Positions 43,517 through 59,019 are shown, numbered from the stretch's first letter. The stretch: DNA of 64,000 nt from Candidatus Hydrogenedentota bacterium (GCA_045863335.1 BTVY01000035.1:1-64000); one strand, 5' to 3'. Notes: generated from the sequence alone by a model not told the origin. Numbers and translations are program-made.

Positions 43517-43668
43517 TTGGGCGTTTCACAGACAAGCGCGGACCGATACGGACACACGCTGCAATCTGCGGACGATATGGTCAAAGGCCGCTGCAGTTGT
43601 GCTAGAATGAGCGGGTGCGGGTGATTCTGTGCCCTGGATGACATGCAACGCATCGAGCAGGGATCGTG

Positions 43669-44724
43669 ATGGACATCGAAAGCTCCGAGAATAGCAGCAC
43701 CTCGCCAAGTTCCGCGAGCGCCCCGCAATCCTTCGACAAGGAAGCGCTCAAGAAAGTTACGGCCGGATTTAAGCCGGGCGAGGTCATTGCCGAACGCTAC
43801 GAAGTCCAAAAGTTGCTCGGCCGGGGCGGCATGGGCATGGTTTACCTATGTTGGGACCGGGAGATGGAACAGCCGGTCGCGCTGAAGACCCTCCTTCCCC
43901 AATACCTCTCCAGCAGCCACGCCGTGAAGCGTTTCGTGCGCGAAGTCAAGGCCGCGCGCCAGCTCAACCACCCCTGTATCGTCAAGGTCTACGATGCGCG
44001 CCAAATCGGGCCGCTCCTCTTCTACACCATGGAATATGTGGACGGGATCAGCCTCTTCAAGTGGATCCGCAAAAAAGGGAAGTTGGGGCTTGGTTCGACC
44101 GTGCGCATTCTCAGTTTGCTGTGTCACGCGCTGGAGCACGCCCATCAATTCACTGTCCACCGCGACATCAGCCCCGACAATGTGATGGTGCTGAAGAACG
44201 GACAGGTGAAACTGTTGGACTTCGGGCTCGCGAAACTGACGAACGTGCAGTCCGCGTTCACGATGATCGGCGTGAGCTTGGGTAAACAGGATTACATGGC
44301 GCCGGAGCAGCGGCTGAGCGCCGCGGGTGTCGATCACCGGGCGGACATCTATTCCTTGGGTGTGATGTTCTACCAGTTGATCACGGGAGAACTCCCGCGC
44401 GCGGGGACTACGCTGACCCGCCTGTGCCCGGATCTTCCGCGGGAAGCCGATGAGTTTGTAGAGAAAGCCATGGCCCAATCGGCCGATGAACGCTTTCAGA
44501 GCGCGAAAGAATACCGGCTGGCTCTGGCGCACCTGTACAAGGTCTGCACAGGCGTCGTCATCCCGGGCACGGACGACGGCGACATCACGAAGATTCAGTT
44601 CGCGGAGGACACCCCGCCGCCGGTCGACACCGACCACTCCGGCACCGCCCAAGCAACTTCCGGTTCCTTCCTGGCGCGGATACGAACGACGTTGGGAAAG
44701 TTCTTGCCGTTCCTGAAGCCGTAG
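43669..44724 (+). CDS. Hanks-type Ser/Thr protein kinase (no TM)
   Basis: LGRGGMG, VALK, HRDISPDN, DFGLA, YMAPEQ, DIYSLG. Confidence 0.93.
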   Translation: MDIESSENSSTSPSSASAPQSFDKEALKKVTAGFKPGEVIAERYEVQKLLGRGGMGMVYLCWDREMEQPVALKTLLPQYLSSSHAVKRFVREVKAARQLNHPCIVKVYDARQIGPLLFYTMEYVDGISLFKWIRKKGKLGLGSTVRILSLLCHALEHAHQFTVHRDISPDNVMVLKNGQVKLLDFGLAKLTNVQSAFTMIGVSLGKQDYMAPEQRLSAAGVDHRADIYSLGVMFYQLITGELPRAGTTLTRLCPDLPREADEFVEKAMAQSADERFQSAKEYRLALAHLYKVCTGVVIPGTDDGDITKIQFAEDTPPPVDTDHSGTAQATSGSFLARIRTTLGKFLPFLKP

Positions 44725-46798: not shown

Positions 46799-48709
46799 TT
46801 AGCGCAGGAACGGTCCAACCTGCTCATTGAAGTCGGAGATCGTCATTCGCTCCACGTGCCCGTCGAGAAAGAGCACGTTTCGCGTGGCCGGTTTGCCTCC
46901 GACTGCGGGGATGTCCTCGATGTTGTACATGAGCGGCACCATCGATTGGGCGCGTGCCCGCAGCGCCGGGTCGTTGAAATCCACTTCTCCTTGCGTTGCG
47001 AGATAGTCCACGGCCATGGCCTCGATATCTTCCTCGGTCATGGCTGGGAACAGGATTTCATAGGAGAGCATGCCGGCTTCGTGCCAGGGCGAGGTTAACA
47101 CGTTCGTATCGCTGAGGTACTCTGGATAGACCGTGCAGAATCCGGGCATCGTATATTCGCAATTCTCGTTTGCGAACATCTTGTTGACGAGGCCAAGCTG
47201 CTTGAGATTGTTCTGGTCGGAGGCGATCATTGCGGACCACTGCGCCGCGACGGCGGTCGCGTCAGTCGCCAGGACCTCGAATTCAGCCATCATGGACCGG
47301 CTGCCGGTATCGCCTTGCGCGCTCAACGTGACGATCTGATCGGGATCACGGTACGCAACTTCGATGAGATTGGGCACAAAGGGCGCGGGACCGCCCCATA
47401 ATTGTTGTAGTTCGGCCTCGTGCGCGAGCAAGGCCTGCCCCGGATCGGGCGAGTTCCTGCAACCTGGAATCCCGGGGAATGACCTAGTTTGCGGAAGGGC
47501 TTGGCCGGAGACGTAGGTAACCACGCGGTTGTCCCGGCTTGCGTACAAATCCGTGGACGCGGTGTAGTCCGGGATCAACAGCGAAAGGGCACTCGGGAAC
47601 TGGCCGTCGTGCGCCTCGGCGTAGGCTCGAAGCGGTCCATACATGGCGCTGACTTCATCAAGGCGCGCCTGCAACAGCGCGCGCGGATCCTGATTGGGAG
47701 AATTCTCGTCGATCCGGCTGAGCTTGACGGCGTAGGAATGGTTCTCGGGGTCCGGCAGGGTCATGTCGCTCGCGAGCGAAGCGGACAATTCCGGCGAGGT
47801 CAACACGACCTCGGTGAACGCGTTGTTGAAGGTCCCGCGTAGGGACCCCAGTTCCTCGCCGCTCGCTATCCGCGTGACGATCAGCGTGTTGCCGTCAAGA
47901 CGCGCTTCGCCAAAATCTTCCATATCGCCATCGGTGACTTGGACGACACCGCCGGTTTCCTCAAACGTCAACGTGTCGCCGTAATCCACCACCTTGTCGT
48001 CGACAAGCACCGCCAGTTGCCAACGGCCGTCGAGCCGCGGACGCGAGGCGATGACGCCGGGGCCTTTAGTGAGGACCTCAAGGTTGCCCCGATTGCTCAA
48101 GATGATCCGCGTTTGCTGCACGTCCTGCAGGATAACCTCGTCGAAGACGCTATCGCCCGGGCGATAGATATGCTGCTCGCCGGTATCGTTGTTCTTGAGA
48201 ACCGCCTGCGGGTCCCCCCCTAGCAGCGTGCCGGTGAGCGTCAGCGGAAGCGACGTTTCCGGGAGCGCGGCCGGCGGCGCCGCTACCGGGGTTCCGTCCA
48301 GCGTGGTGTCGTTCTGCGCGATGACTGTTTGGTCGAGGCCCTGGGAGTTGTCGCGATCGATGGCGACGATGGGCGCTTGGGACTCCGGCGGCCCGCTCAT
48401 CGGCGCGTTGAAATGGCGGAATGCTGCATACCCGGCAATGGCGGCCACCGCGATCATCGCGACCGCGATGGCGTAAGTTCGGAACTTTTGCGATGGTGTG
48501 CTTTCTGCTTCGCGAATGCGATCGATGACGGGACCGTGCAGTCCCATGGGGATGGCCTGTGTTAACAACATGGTTCGCACCCTTTCCAGGTCTTTCAACG
48601 TGGCGGCACAGTCCGGACACGCTCGCAGATGGGCCTCGACCGCGCGCCGTTCAGCGGCGGGAAGCTCCTGGTCCAGGTAGGCCGACAAGTTGGCGTCGTT
48701 ACAGTTCAT
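46799..48709 (-). CDS. zf-HC2 anti-sigma factor fused to GspC-like and pilin/DUF1559-like extracytoplasmic domains
   Basis: LSAYLDQEL...HLRACPDC, TM, LTLTGT...IYRPGD...ILSNRG.LEVL, QNNLKQLGL, NVLFLDGHVE; overlaps the ECF sigma stop. Confidence 0.8.
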   Translation of the reverse strand: MNCNDANLSAYLDQELPAAERRAVEAHLRACPDCAATLKDLERVRTMLLTQAIPMGLHGPVIDRIREAESTPSQKFRTYAIAVAMIAVAAIAGYAAFRHFNAPMSGPPESQAPIVAIDRDNSQGLDQTVIAQNDTTLDGTPVAAPPAALPETSLPLTLTGTLLGGDPQAVLKNNDTGEQHIYRPGDSVFDEVILQDVQQTRIILSNRGNLEVLTKGPGVIASRPRLDGRWQLAVLVDDKVVDYGDTLTFEETGGVVQVTDGDMEDFGEARLDGNTLIVTRIASGEELGSLRGTFNNAFTEVVLTSPELSASLASDMTLPDPENHSYAVKLSRIDENSPNQDPRALLQARLDEVSAMYGPLRAYAEAHDGQFPSALSLLIPDYTASTDLYASRDNRVVTYVSGQALPQTRSFPGIPGCRNSPDPGQALLAHEAELQQLWGGPAPFVPNLIEVAYRDPDQIVTLSAQGDTGSRSMMAEFEVLATDATAVAAQWSAMIASDQNNLKQLGLVNKMFANENCEYTMPGFCTVYPEYLSDTNVLTSPWHEAGMLSYEILFPAMTEEDIEAMAVDYLATQGEVDFNDPALRARAQSMVPLMYNIEDIPAVGGKPATRNVLFLDGHVERMTISDFNEQVGPFLR

Positions 48710-49280
48710 GTACGTTCTTTCCCAAATACTGTCCATCCCGATCGAGGAGGGTGGCGAGGCGTTTGCGGCCCCGGTGAATCCACACCTTGACCTCGTCCAG
48801 GGATGCGCCGAGCGTTTCGGCGATTTCGGCATACCGGAGATCGCCGAACTCGCGCAGCATCAGCGCGGAACGATGGTTGGCGGGCAAGTCCGCCAGCGCG
48901 CGATTCAACTGTTCGCGCAGCAGCGACGACTCGGTTGCGCCGTTGTGCTGTGCCAGGAACGAGTCTTCCAAGGGCACGGATGGCCTGGCGCGCCGGCGGT
49001 TGTCCGCAGCCAGGTTGTGGGCGATCGCAAACAGAAATGATCGCGTCGACCCGCCGGGGCGGAGCTTTCGGGCACGCATGGCCTGGTACAAGCGGAACAA
49101 CGACTCCTGCACGATGTCCTCGGCCTCATGGGAGTTCCGGACCATCCCATAGGCATACCCGTAGAGCGGCCCTTCCAGACGGGTGCACAGGAGTTCGAAC
49201 GCGTTCACGTCCCCGCTGCACACACGCTTGATAAGACCCGCCTCATCCAGACTCGTTGGCGACCCACCGTGCATGTTCAT
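48699..49280 (-). CDS. ECF sigma factor
   Basis: GD..AFE, AEDIVQE, FAIAHN, LP...R..L.LRE...L.Y.EIAE.LG....VK..IHRGR. Confidence 0.93.
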   Translation of the reverse strand: MNMHGGSPTSLDEAGLIKRVCSGDVNAFELLCTRLEGPLYGYAYGMVRNSHEAEDIVQESLFRLYQAMRARKLRPGGSTRSFLFAIAHNLAADNRRRARPSVPLEDSFLAQHNGATESSLLREQLNRALADLPANHRSALMLREFGDLRYAEIAETLGASLDEVKVWIHRGRKRLATLLDRDGQYLGKNVHEL

Positions 49281-52014: not shown

Positions 52015-55000
52015 ATGTCAGATGATCGACCGGATAACCCGGAACAGACGTTCCCCACGCGCGACACTGATCCGCTCATCGGTCAGGACGAATTGGACCG
52101 CGCCATCGCTGCGGCGCGCGAGGCTGCTCGAAAACACCGCGCTGAGATCAGATCACCCGAACCTGCTGACATGCAGGAAGTGGTATCTCCCCCCACGATT
52201 TCAGAGCCGCTGCCGCCGGACCGAGGAATTCTCAACCAGGAGGAATTGAACGACGCCATTCGGCGGCATAGTCACGCACAATCGGCCGCCGCTACGCCTC
52301 CAGCGGCGATCGACCTGGAGACGCAGGAACTGGATGCGGCTGGGGTGATCGACCCCCCGGAAGCGGTGGGCCAGGATGAGATCGATCGGATGCTCGCGGC
52401 CATCGGCAACAGCGAGCTTCTGGGCGGGGCACAGGATACGCGCGAACCCGCGGGTGTGGATCGATTCGATTCGGCAACTGGCGAAGCGCCGGATGTGCCC
52501 GCCGATCGTGGCAGAACCATGGTCACCCAGGACGAGTTGGACCGCGCGCTCGCGGCGAGTCGGGATGCCGTTGCAGAAGCGCGCGCCGAAGCCCAATCCG
52601 TCCCGAAGGAACCGGCAAGGTTCGCAACCGCGCCACCGCCCGAAGTTCCAGCGAGGCCGCTTCCGGCCGACCTTGGCCCGATCAGTCAGGTGGAGCTGGA
52701 TCACGCAGTCGCCGCGCACGACAAAAGCAAAACTCCCGTGGTGGATTCCACCCCCAAGCTGAAGGAAGACGGGACGGCGGAAACTAATTCCGTGACCCAG
52801 GACGAAAGCGACCGAATACTTCGCGCAGCACAGGAGCAGGAACCCCTGGAATCGCCGGTGGACTCGTCCGGAGTGGGGTCCATTAGTCAGGCGGAGATTG
52901 ACGAGGTACTCAAGGCCGACGCCGGGAATGAGGTTGAGGTTGCTCCGCCGGAAAACGGACCCGACGACTTCGGTCAAGTGGATCAGGACGCGATTGACCG
53001 GCTGATTCGGCAGGCGACCGGCGAGGTCACCGCGAAACACGAAGCGCAATCTCCGCCGTTGAAGCCGGCGCAGGAGACCGGGCCGGACGAATCGCCGCAA
53101 GAGCCCCAGAAGCCCGCGGATTCCCATGAGGATGTGCCGGCAACGGAGAATCGCGCGGAAGCGGTAGAGCCGGATCGAGAATCCGAAGCCGGAAGCGCAG
53201 ACAAAGGCACGTTGGGACAGGACGACATCGACAGTCTCCTGGCTGCGATGTCCGGCTCCGCTCCGGCCGTGAAAGGGCCTGCCGAAGAGGATGAGCCGCC
53301 GGTCGACGAATCGGTGGAACTCGATGCCGGCACTTCTCCGGCGCCGGAGGTGGAGGCCGAAGACGAGGAGCAACTCGGGCAGGCGGAGCTTGATGAACTG
53401 CTCGCGGCCTTCTCAACCGAAGATACGCTCGTGAATCAGGGCCTGGACGATCGCCTTACCGAAAGCGATGCTGCCGATACTGGCGACATGGATGCGGAGG
53501 CCGCGCCGCCGCCCGAGCCGCTCGATGAGACGGCTGTGGAAGCGGAACCGGACGTCGAGGATCCGGTCGCCCGGGCAGAGCGCGGCGCGGCGGAGTCGCA
53601 GGTGGGATCGGAGAACCTGGCGGCTGCAGTCCCGGAAGCGGACGATTTGATCGAGTCCATTATCGGTGGCACGGGAGCAAAAGCCGCACCAAGTGTTTCC
53701 GAAAAGCAGGATGACGCGGTTGACCTCGCGATCCCGTCCACCGAAGAACTTGACGCGACTATCGCAGAGGGCGCGCCTGTTGCGCCATCAAGCCGTGACG
53801 ACATGGTGGTGCAACTCGGCGACGAAGAACTGAACGAGGTTGACGTACAGTCCCGCGGCCCGGAGACGGGCGACTACGAAGCTACGCCGCCGCGGAAGGA
53901 TTTCCGCCGATCGATTCTGAAAGACCTTCGCTCACGGTTGGGCAAGGGCGCCGATTCGGGGTCGCTCAAAACGTGGAGTTCCCTTGCCGCGGGAATTCTG
54001 TGCGCCATAGGAACCTTCCTGTTTCTCCAGGCAAACCAGCACCGGTTGCCCGACCTGAGCCTCTTGCCTGCGGAGCAGTACAGCGATCTCTCCGCGGTGT
54101 TACGCAACGCCCGGCAGTTGATCGACATGGAGGAGTATCAGGAAGCGGAATCGTTGCTCGAGCCGATCGTGAAGAGCCGCGCGCCAAGTCCGCAACTTGC
54201 CGAGCTTCAGTATCTCTACATCGAGGCGCAGTACCGCCAGTTGCCCACCCACATCACGGATCGCGAGGCGGAGTCGATGCACCGCGCCATTGACGAACTC
54301 ATCGCCCTGGCGCCAACGTTCCAGGGCAACCCGGACCTGTTGCGCTGGAAGGCGGGGCTCTACGAGCGGAGCGGCGCCTTGGCCGCGGCGCTCAGCACCT
54401 ACCGCGGTCTCATGACCGAATACCTCGATCAGCAACGCGGCGACGAGACGCTGATCCGCGCCGCACGGCTCGCCGGCGAGATGAAGCGCCCTGAAGAATC
54501 TCAGGAGTTTCTGGTGCGGCTGCTGCAACGCTTCCCAGCGTCAGCCTACGCGCCGGAAGCGAAGCTCCTGCTGGGCGATGCGCAGCGCGACGCCGGCAAG
54601 GTGGAGGATGCGCGAAAACTGTACACGCAGGTGGCGCTGAGTCAGGACTTCAGCCCGGTCGGCGCGGAAGCCACGGCCCGGCTCGCGCAACTGGAGATCG
54701 ATCAGGGCCAGCATGCGCAAGCCATCGAGGGTCTCGAACGGCGGCTGGAAACCGCAACGACGGTCGAAGGAAACGATGCCATCTATCTCTTGCTGGCGAA
54801 GGCATACCGGGCAAGTGGCGATCCGGCAAAGGCCGAAACCATTCTGCGCGAACTCATCAGTTTTTTCCCGGAGTCGCCCCATACCGCGGAAGCGTTCGTC
54901 GAACTGAGCCAAACACTGGACGACATCGGCAATCGCCGCGAAGCGTTGCGGATCGCGTCGCATGCCTCGCAACGGTTTCCCGAGAATTCGGCCGTGCTCA

Positions 55001-56049
55001 TCAACGAGGGCGAACTGCAACAGCGGGAAGGCAACGATGCCGGCGCAGCGCAAATCTTCTTGGACGCGGTGGAAGCGGGAAGCGGTAGTCCCGCCACGCT
55101 GCTCGCCGCCGGGCACGCCTTCGCACGGGTGAACGAACTCGCGAAAGCGCGGAAGACGTTCGACCGTTTGATAACCGAGTTTCCGACGACGCCGGAAGCG
55201 TTCGATGGCAGCATCGCGCTGGCTCAAGTGTTGCAGAAGCAGGGCCAGTCGCAAGCCGCGCTGGAACGTCTGACGAACCTGGCCGAGGCGTCCGCGGGAC
55301 GGCCGCAACAGATCGCGCTGCTTCAAGCCTTGGGCGATCTCTACAGTGAACTCGGGTTTCGCGATCGCGCCGCCGAACAGTACGAGGCCGTCGCGGCGAT
55401 TACAAACGACGACACGGCGCTCGCGAAATCGGCAACGGCATTGATTGACGCCGGAGAAGCCGGACCGGGAATGGCGGTCGCGCGCCGCGTCGACGCGTCG
55501 GCGTTGGCGCCGGATACGGCCTACGATTTCCTGACCAGTTACGCAAAGGTGCTGCTCCAGATGGATACCGCGCTCGCGCTCGAAAAAATGGAACAGGCTT
55601 ACAACGCGTACCCCGATCAACGCACGGAAGAAGGCGACCGCGATTTGCTCAACGCCTATCTCGTAACGGGACAGACCGCGCGCGCGAGGGCGTTGGTCAT
55701 GGATCTGTCGGGGTACGCGCGCGAGAATCCTGGAACAGGTCCGCGCCTTCAGCGCACCGCCATTCAGTGGGCGGATGCGCTCTACTCACGAGGCGACTTT
55801 ACAGCGTCCGTCGAGGGCTACGCCCTTGCCGTCGAAGCCGACCCCGATGGAGCGGATGCTGCGTGGGCACGCTTCCAACAGGCGAACGCGTTGATGGAAC
55901 TCAACGAGTACGGCACGAGCCTTGAGCTTCTGGATGCTGTCGCGGAAAGCTCCGCGCCGTACGCGGAAGACGCGCGACTGAAAGCCGAGTACGCGCGACT
56001 GGAGCAACGCTTGCGCGGAGAACGGCCGCAGCCGCAGTTGGGAGGATAG
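52015..56049 (+). CDS. large single-TM TPR protein with an acidic N-terminal arm carrying about 10 QxE(I/L)D repeats
   Basis: About 650-aa acidic, Pro-rich region with repeated helical motifs; TM at about 53974-54030; about 650 aa of TPRs (FPESP, FPAS, YPD turns); GCGGAG RBS before ATG 52015. Confidence 0.85.
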   Translation: MSDDRPDNPEQTFPTRDTDPLIGQDELDRAIAAAREAARKHRAEIRSPEPADMQEVVSPPTISEPLPPDRGILNQEELNDAIRRHSHAQSAAATPPAAIDLETQELDAAGVIDPPEAVGQDEIDRMLAAIGNSELLGGAQDTREPAGVDRFDSATGEAPDVPADRGRTMVTQDELDRALAASRDAVAEARAEAQSVPKEPARFATAPPPEVPARPLPADLGPISQVELDHAVAAHDKSKTPVVDSTPKLKEDGTAETNSVTQDESDRILRAAQEQEPLESPVDSSGVGSISQAEIDEVLKADAGNEVEVAPPENGPDDFGQVDQDAIDRLIRQATGEVTAKHEAQSPPLKPAQETGPDESPQEPQKPADSHEDVPATENRAEAVEPDRESEAGSADKGTLGQDDIDSLLAAMSGSAPAVKGPAEEDEPPVDESVELDAGTSPAPEVEAEDEEQLGQAELDELLAAFSTEDTLVNQGLDDRLTESDAADTGDMDAEAAPPPEPLDETAVEAEPDVEDPVARAERGAAESQVGSENLAAAVPEADDLIESIIGGTGAKAAPSVSEKQDDAVDLAIPSTEELDATIAEGAPVAPSSRDDMVVQLGDEELNEVDVQSRGPETGDYEATPPRKDFRRSILKDLRSRLGKGADSGSLKTWSSLAAGILCAIGTFLFLQANQHRLPDLSLLPAEQYSDLSAVLRNARQLIDMEEYQEAESLLEPIVKSRAPSPQLAELQYLYIEAQYRQLPTHITDREAESMHRAIDELIALAPTFQGNPDLLRWKAGLYERSGALAAALSTYRGLMTEYLDQQRGDETLIRAARLAGEMKRPEESQEFLVRLLQRFPASAYAPEAKLLLGDAQRDAGKVEDARKLYTQVALSQDFSPVGAEATARLAQLEIDQGQHAQAIEGLERRLETATTVEGNDAIYLLLAKAYRASGDPAKAETILRELISFFPESPHTAEAFVELSQTLDDIGNRREALRIASHASQRFPENSAVLINEGELQQREGNDAGAAQIFLDAVEAGSGSPATLLAAGHAFARVNELAKARKTFDRLITEFPTTPEAFDGSIALAQVLQKQGQSQAALERLTNLAEASAGRPQQIALLQALGDLYSELGFRDRAAEQYEAVAAITNDDTALAKSATALIDAGEAGPGMAVARRVDASALAPDTAYDFLTSYAKVLLQMDTALALEKMEQAYNAYPDQRTEEGDRDLLNAYLVTGQTARARALVMDLSGYARENPGTGPRLQRTAIQWADALYSRGDFTASVEGYALAVEADPDGADAAWARFQQANALMELNEYGTSLELLDAVAESSAPYAEDARLKAEYARLEQRLRGERPQPQLGG

Positions 56050-56055
56050 ATCCCG

Positions 56056-56496
56056 TTGGCGCGCGAGGACAATATCGTGGATCGGCTGGTCAATTTCTTC
56101 GATCGGCAGATCGCCTTGTATGAGGAAATGCTCAAGGCTGGCGATACCCGGGCGACGGACATCGAGGCCGATGACTTGAACGCGCTGGCGGTACAACAGG
56201 AAGCATTCAGCCGCCGCGCTAAACAGCTTGAAGAAGAACTTGGGATTCTGTCGCGCGAGTGGGAGCGCGCCGAAGGCGTCACCGATGCGGAGCGACAGCA
56301 TGTCGGTGGATTGGCGCGTCACGCCGAAGCGATGGCAAAGCGGTTGGAAGCGATCGCAAACAATGCCGCAGCACAAGCCCAAACGCGAATGCATACCATC
56401 AAGCGTGAATTGGACGGGCTCCGGCGAGGCCAGCAATCCTTAACGAAATACCGTAGCGGAGACGACGACTCCGGCTATCTCGACACGAAGGCGTAA
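56056..56496 (+). CDS. FlgN/FliT-like flagellar export chaperone
   Basis: Helical bundle, Q..LY.E.L, D...L, C-terminal KY...YLDTKA tail typical of FlgN-like proteins; lies upstream of a FleS/FleR-like pair. Confidence 0.55.
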   Translation: MAREDNIVDRLVNFFDRQIALYEEMLKAGDTRATDIEADDLNALAVQQEAFSRRAKQLEEELGILSREWERAEGVTDAERQHVGGLARHAEAMAKRLEAIANNAAAQAQTRMHTIKRELDGLRRGQQSLTKYRSGDDDSGYLDTKA

Positions 56497-56503
56497 ACCA
56501 GTC

Positions 56504-57664
56504 ATGGCGGATGCAATGCCCAACCAGGACATGGACATCAAGGCGCTGGCCGAGGCGTTTGAAGCGTTCAACCGTACGACGCAGACGATGGAGGAGTCGT
56601 ACCGGCGCTTGGAAACGCGTCTTCAGGAATTGGACCGGGAACTGGAAACGCGCAACCGCGAACTCGCGCTGACCAGCGATTACCTCAATTCGATCATGGA
56701 AAGTATGTCGGACGGCGTGATTGCCGTCGATACCGGCGAACGCATCACGACCTTTAACGGGGCGGCGAGCCAGGTGTTGGGGTTTCAGGCGGGCGATGTG
56801 GTCGGCAGCTATTTCCGCGACGTGTTCGGACGGGAGTTCTCCGCCACCGACGGCCGCGCGCTGCTCGAGTTGCGGGCCCAGGACGGGCACACGGTGCAAG
56901 TCATCGAGCGGGATTCTCCGCTCTTCGGCCGGAATGGCGCGCGAATCGGCGCGGTCAAGGTCTTCCAGGATCAAACCGAACTTGAAGCCCTTCGTTCGAA
57001 GATGCGGCAACAGGATCGGCTCGCGGCCATCGGCGAGATGGCCGCAACGGTGGCGCATGAAATCCGCAATCCGTTGGGCGGCATTCGCGGTTTTGCCTCG
57101 CTGTTGGCGCGCGATCTCGATGAGGAGGATCCCCGGCGGCGGCTGGTGGACAAGATTCAAATCGGCGCGCGGGAACTGGAGCGCGTCGTAAGCGAGTTGC
57201 TCGAATACACGCGGCCGCTTCAACTGCAGTTGCGCACGGTATCCTGCGCCGAACTCGTCGATGGCACGCTCGGCTATGTGGAACTGGGGAATCGCCCGGT
57301 GCAGATCAAGAACGGCATCGCCAAAAACCTGCAAGCCTCAGTCGACCCGGAGAAAATCCGGCAAGTCTTTCTCAACATCATTCTGAACGCGGTACAAAGC
57401 ATCGACGGTGCTGGAGAAGTGCACATCACCGCCGAGTCCAGAGATGCCCTGATCGCCGTCGCGTTCAAAGATACGGGATGCGGCATGTCACCGGAGCAAT
57501 TGACACAGGTGTTCTCGCCCTTCTTCACGACCAAGGAAAAAGGTACGGGGCTCGGTCTGGCGGTCGCCTCAAAGATCGTGGAAGCACACAACGGTTTCAT
57601 CAACGTAGAGAGCAATCCGGGAGAAGGGTCGACGTTCTACGTGCACCTTCCCCGCGCGGAGTAA
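56504..57664 (+). CDS. cytoplasmic PAS histidine kinase (FleS/FlgS-like)
   Basis: N-terminal L.EAF..FN.....E.SY..L coiled coil typical of FleS, PAS domain, AHEIRNPLGG, N box, FFTTKEKGTGLGL. Confidence 0.88.
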   Translation: MADAMPNQDMDIKALAEAFEAFNRTTQTMEESYRRLETRLQELDRELETRNRELALTSDYLNSIMESMSDGVIAVDTGERITTFNGAASQVLGFQAGDVVGSYFRDVFGREFSATDGRALLELRAQDGHTVQVIERDSPLFGRNGARIGAVKVFQDQTELEALRSKMRQQDRLAAIGEMAATVAHEIRNPLGGIRGFASLLARDLDEEDPRRRLVDKIQIGARELERVVSELLEYTRPLQLQLRTVSCAELVDGTLGYVELGNRPVQIKNGIAKNLQASVDPEKIRQVFLNIILNAVQSIDGAGEVHITAESRDALIAVAFKDTGCGMSPEQLTQVFSPFFTTKEKGTGLGLAVASKIVEAHNGFINVESNPGEGSTFYVHLPRAE

Positions 57665-57666
57665 GT

Positions 57667-59019
57667 ATGGCGAGAGCACATGTCCTCGTGATTGACGACG
57701 AAAACCTCATGCGTGAATACGTGGAGGAAGCTTTGACGCGCGCCGGCCACGAAGTCAAAGGCGCCGGCAGCGGACGCGAAGGCATCGAACTGCTCGAGAA
57801 GAACGTGTTTGATGTGGTCGTGTCGGATCTGAAGATGGCGCCCGTCGATGGCTTCGAAGTGCTTCGTCAAGTTCGCGCCCATAGCCCCGGGACGCCCTGC
57901 ATCATCATGACGGCGTACGCCACGGTGGAAACCGCCATCGAGGCGTTGCGCGAAGGCGCCTACGACTACATCATGAAGCCCTTCTCACCGGATGAGCTGG
58001 AGTTGGCAGTCAATCGCGCCATTGAACGTGAACGCATGGCCCTCGAGAACCGCTACCTGCGCGATGAACTCAATCAACGCTACGATTTCGCGTCCATGGT
58101 CGGCGAGAGCAAGGCCATGCGCGAGGTCTACGAGCAGATCAAGAAGGTGGCGGACAGCCGGGCTACGGTGCTCATCCGCGGCGAGAGCGGAACCGGGAAG
58201 GAACTCGTCGCGCGGGCGATTCACTACTCGGGCGTTCGCAAAGACCAGCCTTTCATCAAGGTGAACTGCGCGGCCCTCTCCGCAGGGCTGCTCGAAAGCG
58301 AGTTGTTCGGCCACGAGAAGGGCTCCTTCACCGGCGCGCACGACCGCAAGATCGGGCGATTCGAACTTGCCGACACGGGCACCCTGCTCCTCGACGAAGT
58401 CAGCGAAATCAGTATGGAGCTGCAACCGAAGCTGCTCCGGGCACTGCAGGAGCGGGAGTTCGAACGCGTCGGCGGCACGCATCCCATCCAGGTGGACACG
58501 CGGATCATCTGCACCTCGAACCGCAACCTGGAAGAAGCCGTCGAGAAAGGAGAGATTCGCGAAGACCTCTTCTTCCGGCTGAACGTCATCCCCGTGATCC
58601 TGCCGCCCTTGCGGGATCGAAAAGAAGACATCCCCGCGCTGATGGATTATTTCCTGGAGCGCTTCGTGAAGGAAAACGCGCGTTCCATCAACGGGTTCAG
58701 CGAAGCGGCGCGAGCGTTGTTTATGGAATACCCGTGGCCGGGCAACGTGCGCGAACTGCAGAACGCCATCGAGCGGGCTGTCGTGTTGTCCTCGGACCGC
58801 ACGCTTGAACCCAAGCATTTCAATCTCCATCAAGCCATCGGTGCGAAAACCGGGGGCAACGGCGCGGGGCTGCGTCCCGGAAAGACCGTCGCCGAAATGG
58901 AAAAGGAACTCATCCTCCAAACCCTCGAACACTGCAATCAAAACCGCACCCACGCCGCCGACATGCTCGGCATCAGCGTCAGGACCCTTCGGAACAAACT
59001 AAAGGAGTATTTCGGCTAG
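57667..59019 (+). CDS. sigma54-dependent NtrC-family response regulator (FleR/FlgR-like)
   Basis: Receiver domain, GESGTGKE, ESELFGHEKGSFTGA, LLLDE, WPGNVREL, NRTHAADMLGISVRTLRNKL. Confidence 0.92.
   Translation: MARAHVLVIDDENLMREYVEEALTRAGHEVKGAGSGREGIELLEKNVFDVVVSDLKMAPVDGFEVLRQVRAHSPGTPCIIMTAYATVETAIEALREGAYDYIMKPFSPDELELAVNRAIERERMALENRYLRDELNQRYDFASMVGESKAMREVYEQIKKVADSRATVLIRGESGTGKELVARAIHYSGVRKDQPFIKVNCAALSAGLLESELFGHEKGSFTGAHDRKIGRFELADTGTLLLDEVSEISMELQPKLLRALQEREFERVGGTHPIQVDTRIICTSNRNLEEAVEKGEIREDLFFRLNVIPVILPPLRDRKEDIPALMDYFLERFVKENARSINGFSEAARALFMEYPWPGNVRELQNAIERAVVLSSDRTLEPKHFNLHQAIGAKTGGNGAGLRPGKTVAEMEKELILQTLEHCNQNRTHAADMLGISVRTLRNKLKEYFG

Follow-up and report, generated by a model that had tools for sequence, protein, structure and literature searches.

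A flagellum-linked membrane protein of Candidatus Hydrogenedentota with an array of peptides resembling the N-terminus of FliM

Bacterial chemotaxis, in the textbook account, ends at the N-terminal peptide of FliM (FliM-N), which in polar flagellates serves FlhG as a handle too; in FliM and FliY this EIDAL docking peptide is present singly in each protein. The EIDAL motif of FliM is described as a high-affinity site for phosphorylated CheY (CheY-P) (bioRxiv 10.1101/2022.04.21.489128), and the MinD-like ATPase FlhG is stated to bind EIDAL as well, the motif being "necessary and sufficient" in Shewanella (bioRxiv 10.1101/2022.04.21.489128; PMC12826062). The gene analysed here lies in a 64,000-nucleotide (nt) stretch from a Candidatus Hydrogenedentota bacterium (GCA_045863335.1 BTVY01000035.1:1-64000), the whole of which is referred to as the window, and encodes a 1344-amino acid (aa) membrane protein, P0001, with ten FliM-N-like peptides in its acidic N-terminal arm. 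This protein is a real, undescribed flagellum-linked bitopic scaffold of Hydrogenedentota. CheY-P would be the most likely ligand of the expanded array, which could act as a tethered reservoir, sink or antenna (a probability of roughly 45%, from sequence comparison and modelling), and FlhG is the main rival to CheY-P for that role. No description of a membrane protein with an array of FliM-N-type peptides was found in the literature searched (EIDAL, CheY-binding peptide, phylum names), and the main text of a genomic survey of the phylum mentions motility in general terms only.

The ten copies in the arm follow the consensus h-h-x-Q-[DE]-E-[IL]-D-x-h-h and agree with hh[SGT]QxE[ILV]DxLL, the consensus of EIDAL-type peptides carried by a flexible segment. 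The pattern Q.[DEA][ILVMS][DN].[ALIVM][ILVM] is matched ten times within residues 1-640 and not once in the C-terminal half of the protein, the chance expectation from 2000 shuffles of the arm being a mean of 0.019 matches (maximum 1). When all stop-to-stop open reading frames (ORFs) of the genome that reach 80 aa (7,299,168 aa in total) were scanned, the pattern was detected in 87 ORFs, and the window protein was the sole one with more than two matches. An earlier reading made from the sequence without database searches (the sequence-only reading) had described the ORF, its three-part build and the ten copies, all of which were recovered at the positions it gave (Table 1). Three weaker copies that it had also listed fared less well: those at 53731 and 53812 fit a looser pattern but fall below the matrix threshold given below, and one near 53428 fits neither.

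A 13-column matrix, for which 39 orthologues supplied 105 unique repeat instances, served to assess the likeness of the repeats to FliM-N; its threshold was set from shuffled arms, at the 99th percentile of their best scores. Across all ORFs of the genome (6.2 million aa), the top match outside the protein itself is the FliM N-terminal segment ILSQDEVDLLLSA (21.7, with the runner-up at 19.2), and the likeness is therefore objective, as the sequence-only reading had supposed in assigning the repeats to this type. The genome encodes one FliM, the N-terminus of which reads MADILSQDEVDLLLSAV, and 19 of 20 sampled genomes of the phylum have a FliM that starts with MADILSQ[DE]EVDLLL. In the clade of the window the repeats favour E-L-D-R-A-I/L, with E-V-D-L-L-L in FliM, and the repeats of distant orthologues read LSQD[DE]LDALL/I. 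A consensus of h-h-S/G/T-Q-x-E-I/L/V-D-x-h-h on a flexible acidic tether is common to the FliM/FliY EIDAL and CheZ C-terminal peptides and to the copies described here, and as in FliM the first copy lies near the N-terminus. Unlike FliM, which in this phylum was seen with one copy, the window protein has ten (0 to 22 across its family) and is a membrane protein; unlike FliM and FliY, it contains no FliM, FliN or CheC domain detectable with Pfam. We infer that the peptides would dock what FliM-N binds.

The arm that displays these peptides contains 23.8% Asp plus Glu and 9.8% Pro over residues 1-640 and has a net charge of -101. The best hydrophobic window of the protein starts at residue 653 with a basic stretch ahead of it, and Lys plus Arg are more numerous on the N-side than on the C-side of this transmembrane helix in 33 of 39 non-redundant orthologues (means 4.4 vs 1.8), which predicts a cytoplasmic N-terminus, as had been proposed from the window protein by itself. 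The arm is thus predicted to be cytoplasmic and disordered and the C-terminal tetratricopeptide repeat (TPR) domain periplasmic. The approximately 650 aa of TPR expected after the helix are borne out by Pfam TPR families, which match residues 696-1134, and by an AlphaFold2 (AF2) model of residues 641-1344, an all-helical solenoid of 36 helices with a predicted local distance difference test (pLDDT) value of 88.6. The build of acidic arm, transmembrane helix and TPR domain is common to all orthologues. Approximately 110 residues N-terminal of the transmembrane helix, 26 of 39 arms have a further motif, VGSENLAAA, and in most orthologues a FliM-like copy (e.g., LSQDxLDALL) follows GSENLAAA.

Several described scaffolds share parts of this build. 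PodJ of Caulobacter is an N-in bitopic polar scaffold with a partly disordered cytoplasmic region and periplasmic TPRs; to our knowledge it uses coiled coils and has no EIDAL array. The long TPR solenoid, predicted to be periplasmic, is a likeness to PflA/PflB, as are the polar flagellate host and the membrane anchoring (the topology being a prediction here), and we know of no cytoplasmic peptide array in PflA/PflB. HubP/FimV proteins are, like the window protein, bitopic with a highly acidic, repeat-rich cytoplasmic region, which recruits flagellar and chemotaxis factors including FlhG and FlhF (bioRxiv 10.1101/2022.04.21.489128; PMC12826062), but the topology is opposite, the repeats are unrelated and the periplasmic part of the window protein is a 650-aa TPR solenoid. 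A fold search with the TPR domain returned the Campylobacter motor periplasmic scaffold chain 9hmf_K at rank 5 (E 3.3e-12) with a TM-score of 0.26-0.28, which is comparable to that of eukaryotic TPR proteins and marks the match as generic; a profile search of PDB sequences gave generic TPR proteins throughout, among the 60 of 111 matches listed.

Relatives of the protein are labelled Candidatus Hydrogenedentes or Hydrogenedentota and carry in the database merely the name "tetratricopeptide repeat protein". Seventeen orthologues were detected at E <= 3.4e-95, the next matches being generic TPR proteins at E >= 9e-17, and a query with the arm only (residues 1-560) returned four close orthologues and no others, with the sensitivity limited for low-complexity sequence of this kind; the protein family is restricted to Hydrogenedentota. 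In orthologues at 59-63% overall identity the motif positions are 66% identical vs 34% for the rest of the arm, and at 47% overall identity the corresponding values are 45% and 20%, such that non-motif arm residues evolve about twice as fast as motif residues. The motif is under purifying selection and the linkers are not, and a motif that is conserved while the arm around it diverges is what characterizes short linear motifs within disordered chains.

Copy number, as counted with the matrix, ranges from 0 to 22 across 96 arms of the phylum, and at least nine copies are found in 20 arms belonging to six families with differing repeat units. One array (L035) consists of DLSQDDLDALIAQ repeated 16 times at a spacing of 26-30 residues and is tandem at the DNA level, with periods of 78-90 nt and 70-94% matches; another (L034), with the unit PMSQAELDALLAG at a spacing of 28-30 residues, is likewise tandem in the DNA (84 nt, 90% matches). 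The occurrence of large arrays in six families, with differing units and DNA-level tandems, indicates that amplification has been repeated and independent. No DNA-level tandem repeat was detected in the array of the window, which is thus old and held solely at the motif.

The distribution of the protein links it to flagella. In a scan of 135 genomes of the phylum, the TPR protein was matched in 102, FliM in 107, FliG in 106 and FlhG in 109, the last tracking flagella with the same family pattern as the TPR protein. The protein and FliM are found together in 100 genomes and are both missing from 26, leaving nine discordant genomes. Two of these have the protein without FliM (G098 and G126) and both contain FliG; the other seven have FliM without the protein, four of them being 66-89% complete (G106, G091, G114 and G131), two 92-95% (G041 and G043) and one 84% (G038). 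In family f3 both are missing from 21 of 23 genomes, and the sole two genomes with FliM are the sole two with the protein; further joint absences occur in f8 (two genomes), f13 (one) and f1 (two, one of which is 100% complete). Because related genomes are not independent, events rather than genomes were counted, which gives at least four co-losses of the protein and flagella in four families. The sequence-only reading held that occurrence in genomes without cheY and flagellar genes would speak against it; 24 protein-bearing genomes indeed lack a CheW match, yet in none of the 135 genomes is the protein found with FliM and FliG both missing. Many Hydrogenedentota encode FliM, FliG and FlhG with no CheW-domain match (e.g., G093, which is 97% complete in 10 contigs, G063, G066, G001 and G002); such genomes look flagellated, with chemotaxis apparently missing.

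Gene order points in the same direction. In 24 related loci the conserved order is the TPR gene, a gene for a 146-aa helical protein, a PAS kinase gene and a gene for a sigma54-dependent regulator, the four being spaced by 2-8 nt in the window. The 146-aa protein was detected by tblastn in 13 loci, and ORFs of equal size and place in other loci were aligned with it. The kinase follows directly downstream in 21 of the 24 loci (two of the remaining three end at a contig edge), and the regulator is adjacent in 17, with L019, L022 and L024 among those in which it is not; both are 55-98% identical across loci. One genome, G063 (L030), has the TPR and small helical genes without a kinase or regulator beside them, an opposite-strand 869-aa ORF being next. 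In 18 genomes the TPR gene and FliG share a contig; the distance to FliG is 6.6-10.3 kb in 14 of these, downstream and on the same strand, 16-26 kb in three and 215 kb in one. The order TPR gene, (small gene), kinase, regulator, flgC, fliF, fliG, fliH, fliI was found in all five loci so compared (tblastn, with Pfam on L012), which represent families f1 and f7 and the deepest branches, f14 and f15. Collinearity through fliI that includes the deepest families points to the head of the early flagellar cluster as the ancestral place of the gene. In the window's own genus this adjacency is lost, with FliG on contig C24 and the regulator followed by a transporter and a GH116 enzyme. The flagellar connection that the sequence-only reading had put forward is thus well supported, by co-occurrence with FliM, FliG and FlhG and by the 14 genomes in which the gene is collinear with flgC-fliFGHI; neither the conserved operon with a sigma54 two-component system (TCS) nor FlhG as a second ligand of the motif had figured in it.

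That the repeats are a generic acidic amphipathic helix, serving self-association, membrane contact or a condensate in an envelope or polysaccharide role, with a merely coincidental likeness to FliM-N, appears very improbable. An exopolysaccharide cluster does lie 9-30 kb upstream in the window, a Wzy_C gene lies divergently upstream in f10 loci, and the summed TPR score exceeds the YbgF/CpoB cut-off (94.3 vs 90.1 bits), but both genomic contexts are lineage-specific, FliM-N tops the outside matrix matches in 6.2 million aa, and the co-loss with flagella in at least four families and the ancestral place by flgC-fliFGHI would be left without account.

The neighbouring genes bring in another alternative, which we regard as quite unlikely, namely that the protein is an accessory sensor of the co-operonic TCS. 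The TPR domain would then report basal-body or envelope assembly and gate later flagellar genes, with the arm peptides or GSENLAAA binding the PAS kinase, the receiver of the regulator or the small helical protein, in a checkpoint like those of FlgSR, FlrBC and FleSR. In its favour, 21 of 24 loci have the kinase directly downstream and 17 have the regulator there, receiver domains have the CheY fold, and a TCS ahead of fliF-fliG resembles the layout of flagellum-associated TCSs (PMC7064773), the kinases of which are cytoplasmic with PAS or coiled-coil regions and depend on the type III secretion system of the flagellum (fT3SS)/export gate, the MS-ring and rotor formation, and which co-occur with FlhF/FlhG in polar flagellates (PMC7064773). 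As with FlrBC, FleSR and FlgSR, the neighbours are a soluble PAS kinase and an NtrC-type sigma54 regulator beside fliE/F/G, with FlhF/FlhG present; in the texts covered, no upstream TPR or peptide-array gene is described for those systems. A cytoplasmic kinase and sigma54 regulator beside early flagellar genes are found in the collinear loci; the genome of the window itself does not have them so placed. The neighbours reach none of the NCBIfam equivalog cut-offs (FlgS 94.8 vs 600, FlgR 340 vs 750, FlbD 403 vs 750), so that assignment to a flagellar TCS rests on context. A checkpoint, moreover, needs one site rather than 10-22, the kinase and regulator keep 55-98% identity across a copy-number range of 0 to 22, and the protein and small gene occur without an adjoining TCS in G063 and without an adjacent regulator in L019, L022 and L024.

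A genome scan for sigma54 promoters, the outcome of which also counts against this alternative, gave 83 sites with at most one mismatch, and of the 20 ORFs located behind the best of them none is flagellar, the upstream regions of flagellar genes not having been examined directly. The ORFs found behind such sites include amtB, Hsp20, ClpB, two PEP-CTERM proteins, two prepilin-type N_methyl proteins and PilZ (e.g., C47:8708, C21:26920, C28:29263, C43:17950 and C48:19970). A further sigma54-like site, TGGCTCAAGTGTTGCA, with one mismatch, lies at 55220-55235 inside the TPR gene approximately 800 nt ahead of its stop and is probably due to chance.

The genome (G000) encodes, at C1:131429-131797, a canonical 122-aa CheY (DWNMPNM...YIIKPF) beside cheA/cheW, and flhB-flhA-flhF-flhG are present as well, with flhG at C9:49580-50455. 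That the peptides dock CheY, as the sequence-only reading suggested, was modelled for copy 9 (residues 390-425, with the other nine copies in its alignment; 28 rows in that of CheY). The complex scored 0.39, 0.41 and 0.39, the best of three controls reaching 0.01, which amounts to "weak support" on a scale whose mark is reached by 116 of 157 solved complexes and two of 215 mismatches, with 18 of the 157 and both of those mismatches scoring 0.60 or less; at least 97% of the contacts are common to the runs and the pLDDT of the partner is at least 56. The CheY scan scored 33 of up to 146 candidates per genome, making absences unreliable, and CheW was therefore used as the marker of chemotaxis. 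CheW domains were matched in 82 of the 135 genomes, and copy number rises with CheW-domain matches (Spearman 0.54, n = 82 arms with a complete 5' end; 0.45 with genome size removed; 0.60 when pooled within families), 19 of the 20 arrays of at least nine copies being in genomes with CheW.

Several observations weigh against CheY-P as the ligand. Structures of CheY-FliM peptide complexes have already been solved, so that the complex score may reflect likeness or memory only. The correlation with CheW is uncorrected for phylogeny, genome size is a further correlate of copy number (0.58), and the incompleteness of metagenome-assembled genomes blurs absences. Most of the 24 protein-bearing genomes without a CheW match are also without a CheY orthologue match (among the 33 candidates scored, of up to 146 per genome), and 15 of 20 CheW-less genomes with complete arms keep 1-12 copies (median 2; 12 in G066 and 7 in G036). 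The repeats of the window clade depart from FliM-N of the phylum at three positions (D-R-A-I/L vs D-L-L-L), and the operon partners of the gene are early flagellar and regulatory genes rather than che genes. The sequence-only reading had taken homologs lacking the repeats as a point that would tell against it; copies do vary between 0 and 22, and homologs without any exist in part of the family (12 of 96 arms, both deepest families among them). Finally FlhG, which binds EIDAL in other bacteria, is encoded in 109 of 135 genomes and tracks flagella.

This last point leads to the main rival, which we judge to be unlikely, in which the peptides would bind FlhG, and the protein, like HubP in Vibrio, would capture or titrate it at the membrane or pole and so control flagellar number, C-ring assembly and, through FlhG, sigma54-dependent transcription. 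FlhG is bound by FliM-N or FliY-N in Shewanella and Bacillus, HubP aids FlhG function at the pole, and FlhG modulates FlrA/FleQ (bioRxiv 10.1101/2022.04.21.489128; PMC12826062). In Hydrogenedentota, FlhG is also encoded in CheW-less genomes, where docking of FlhG would explain the copies that are kept, and the TPR gene is grouped with early flagellar genes and a sigma54 regulator. However, FlhG is single-copy and offers no obvious reason for 10-22 sites or for the rise with CheW-domain genes, and zero-copy orthologues are found in FlhG-bearing genomes (G093, G001 and G002). The probability not taken up by the explanations considered here falls to something else.

It can be proposed that the predicted periplasmic TPR solenoid and the transmembrane helix anchor the protein in the inner membrane, and that short helical docking peptides of the FliM-N (EIDAL) type are presented on a long cytoplasmic arm, acidic and disordered. 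With CheY-P as the ligand, the arm would act as a membrane-tethered multivalent reservoir, sink or antenna for CheY-P beside the motor, and copy number would tune its capacity; where lineages without chemotaxis genes keep one to four basal copies, these may serve FlhG instead. A more specific version, rather doubtful as a whole, is that of a motor- or pole-anchored, evolvable CheY-P antenna or sink in which the peptides set the local concentration and lifetime of the signal and tandem amplification retunes its capacity. Each motor would have dozens to hundreds of such tethered peptides that mimic FliM, a unit of 26-30 residues would be amplified in tandem as the chemosensory network grows, and the antenna would be encoded with, and possibly feed back on, the sigma54 checkpoint system of flagellar assembly.

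If CheY-P is the ligand, the array would buffer, concentrate or drain the switching signal in a novel manner, and an antenna would process chemotaxis signals at a further, new level that lies outside the C-ring; if FlhG is the ligand, the protein would be a non-proteobacterial counterpart of the HubP landmark. With either ligand, a periplasmic TPR anchor would be tied to the flagellar sigma54 checkpoint system. The peptides and CheY are small and easily made, so that the question can be addressed directly in vitro despite the phylum being uncultured.

Table 1. Features of the P0001 gene, its product and the genes that follow it, with positions counted from the first nucleotide of the window
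Feature	Position	Strand	Basis or remark
Gene for the 1344-aa bitopic protein P0001	52015..56049	+	ATG at 52015, GGAG ahead of start; NCBI orthologue with the same start
Acidic Pro-rich arm, predicted cytoplasmic, residues 1-652, net charge ~-101	52015..53970	+	Composition
Motif copy 1, LIGQDELDRAI	52075..52107	+	
Motif copy 2, ILNQEELNDAI	52228..52260	+	
Motif copy 3, AVGQDEIDRML	52363..52395	+	
Motif copy 4, MVTQDELDRAL	52519..52551	+	
Motif copy 5, PISQVELDHAV	52678..52710	+	
Motif copy 6, SVTQDESDRIL	52789..52821	+	Weakest, S replaces I/L
Motif copy 7, SISQAEIDEVL	52879..52911	+	
Motif copy 8, QVDQDAIDRLI	52975..53007	+	
Motif copy 9, TLGQDDIDSLL	53209..53241	+	Copy modelled with CheY
Motif copy 10, QLGQAELDELL	53371..53403	+	
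Second conserved arm motif VGSENLAAAVP; E533, N534, A537, A538 and P540 invariant or nearly so	53602..53634	+	Orthologue arms
EADDLIESII, degenerate remnant of an ancient copy after GSENLAAA	53635..53664	+	Orthologue comparison
Single transmembrane helix, ~residues 653-673, N-in/C-out predicted	53971..54033	+	Hydrophobicity, basic N-side
TPR solenoid, predicted periplasmic, ~650 aa, 36 helices in model	54082..56019	+	Pfam, AF2 model
146-aa three-helix protein; invariant R10, R17, E61, E68, W69, R124, G125 and Y132	56056..56496	+	Alignment, model
Soluble PAS-HisKA-HATPase histidine kinase, conserved downstream partner	56504..57664	+	Pfam, loci comparison
NtrC-type sigma54-dependent response regulator (REC-AAA+-HTH_8), likely start MARAHVLVIDD	57667..59019	+	Pfam

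The 146-aa protein encoded directly downstream of the TPR gene (Table 1) is modelled as three helices with a pLDDT of 79.8. Pfam FlgN matches 3 of 14 members (best E 0.0048), and Foldseek gave no match at E <= 0.001, with FliT at rank 4 and FlgN at rank 49. The nearest ESM Atlas clusters (scores 0.88-0.91) are mostly unnamed, and a few carry FlgN/FliT, in 13-27% of their members. The likeness to the flagellar chaperones FlgN and FliT is weak and may serve as a lead only.

Other identities considered for the TPR protein were rejected. For HubP/FimV no LysM match was obtained with Pfam, and the FimV C-terminal model TIGR03504 scores 26.5 bits vs a cut-off of 30.65, on the TPR region. The upstream exopolysaccharide cluster prompted a comparison with PrsT, the PEP-CTERM TPR lipoprotein that is the partner of PrsK/PrsR, which fails at 49.5 vs 312.2 bits (TIGR02917), as does PrsR for the regulator at 401.6 vs 502.6 (TIGR02915); all three PrsT/PrsK/PrsR models remain far below their cut-offs and the flagellar context is ancestral. 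The CpoB/YbgF model TIGR02795 sums to its 94.3 bits (cut-off 90.1) over three TPR stretches, but the build differs, the protein being 1344 aa with a transmembrane helix and arm, and no Tol-Pal family is found in the window neighbours examined.

The exopolysaccharide cluster of the window is large (20768-43516) and includes a Wza-like Poly_export protein, a Wzz/GNVR chain-length protein, a Wzy_C ligase/polymerase, a Polysacc_synt flippase, a Bac_transf priming transferase, several glycosyltransferases of GT1, GT2 and GT4 and sugar-nucleotide enzymes. It is followed by a Ser/Thr kinase gene at 43666-44724 and, at 46799-48832 on the minus strand, a gene for a 677-aa protein that fuses an anti-sigma zf-HC2 domain with a type II secretion GspC-like domain. 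The gene divergently upstream of the TPR gene in L016, L030, L032/L033 and L034 (f10 and its kin) encodes a Wzy_C (O-antigen ligase-like) membrane protein. Adjoining flhG, at C9:44288-49090 in G000 (L038 288-5090, minus strand), is a gene for a 1600-aa protein with DUF4011, AAA_11/12 helicase, REase_MTES_1575 and DUF3320 regions, which is probably a defence or repair helicase-nuclease that is unrelated to flagella.

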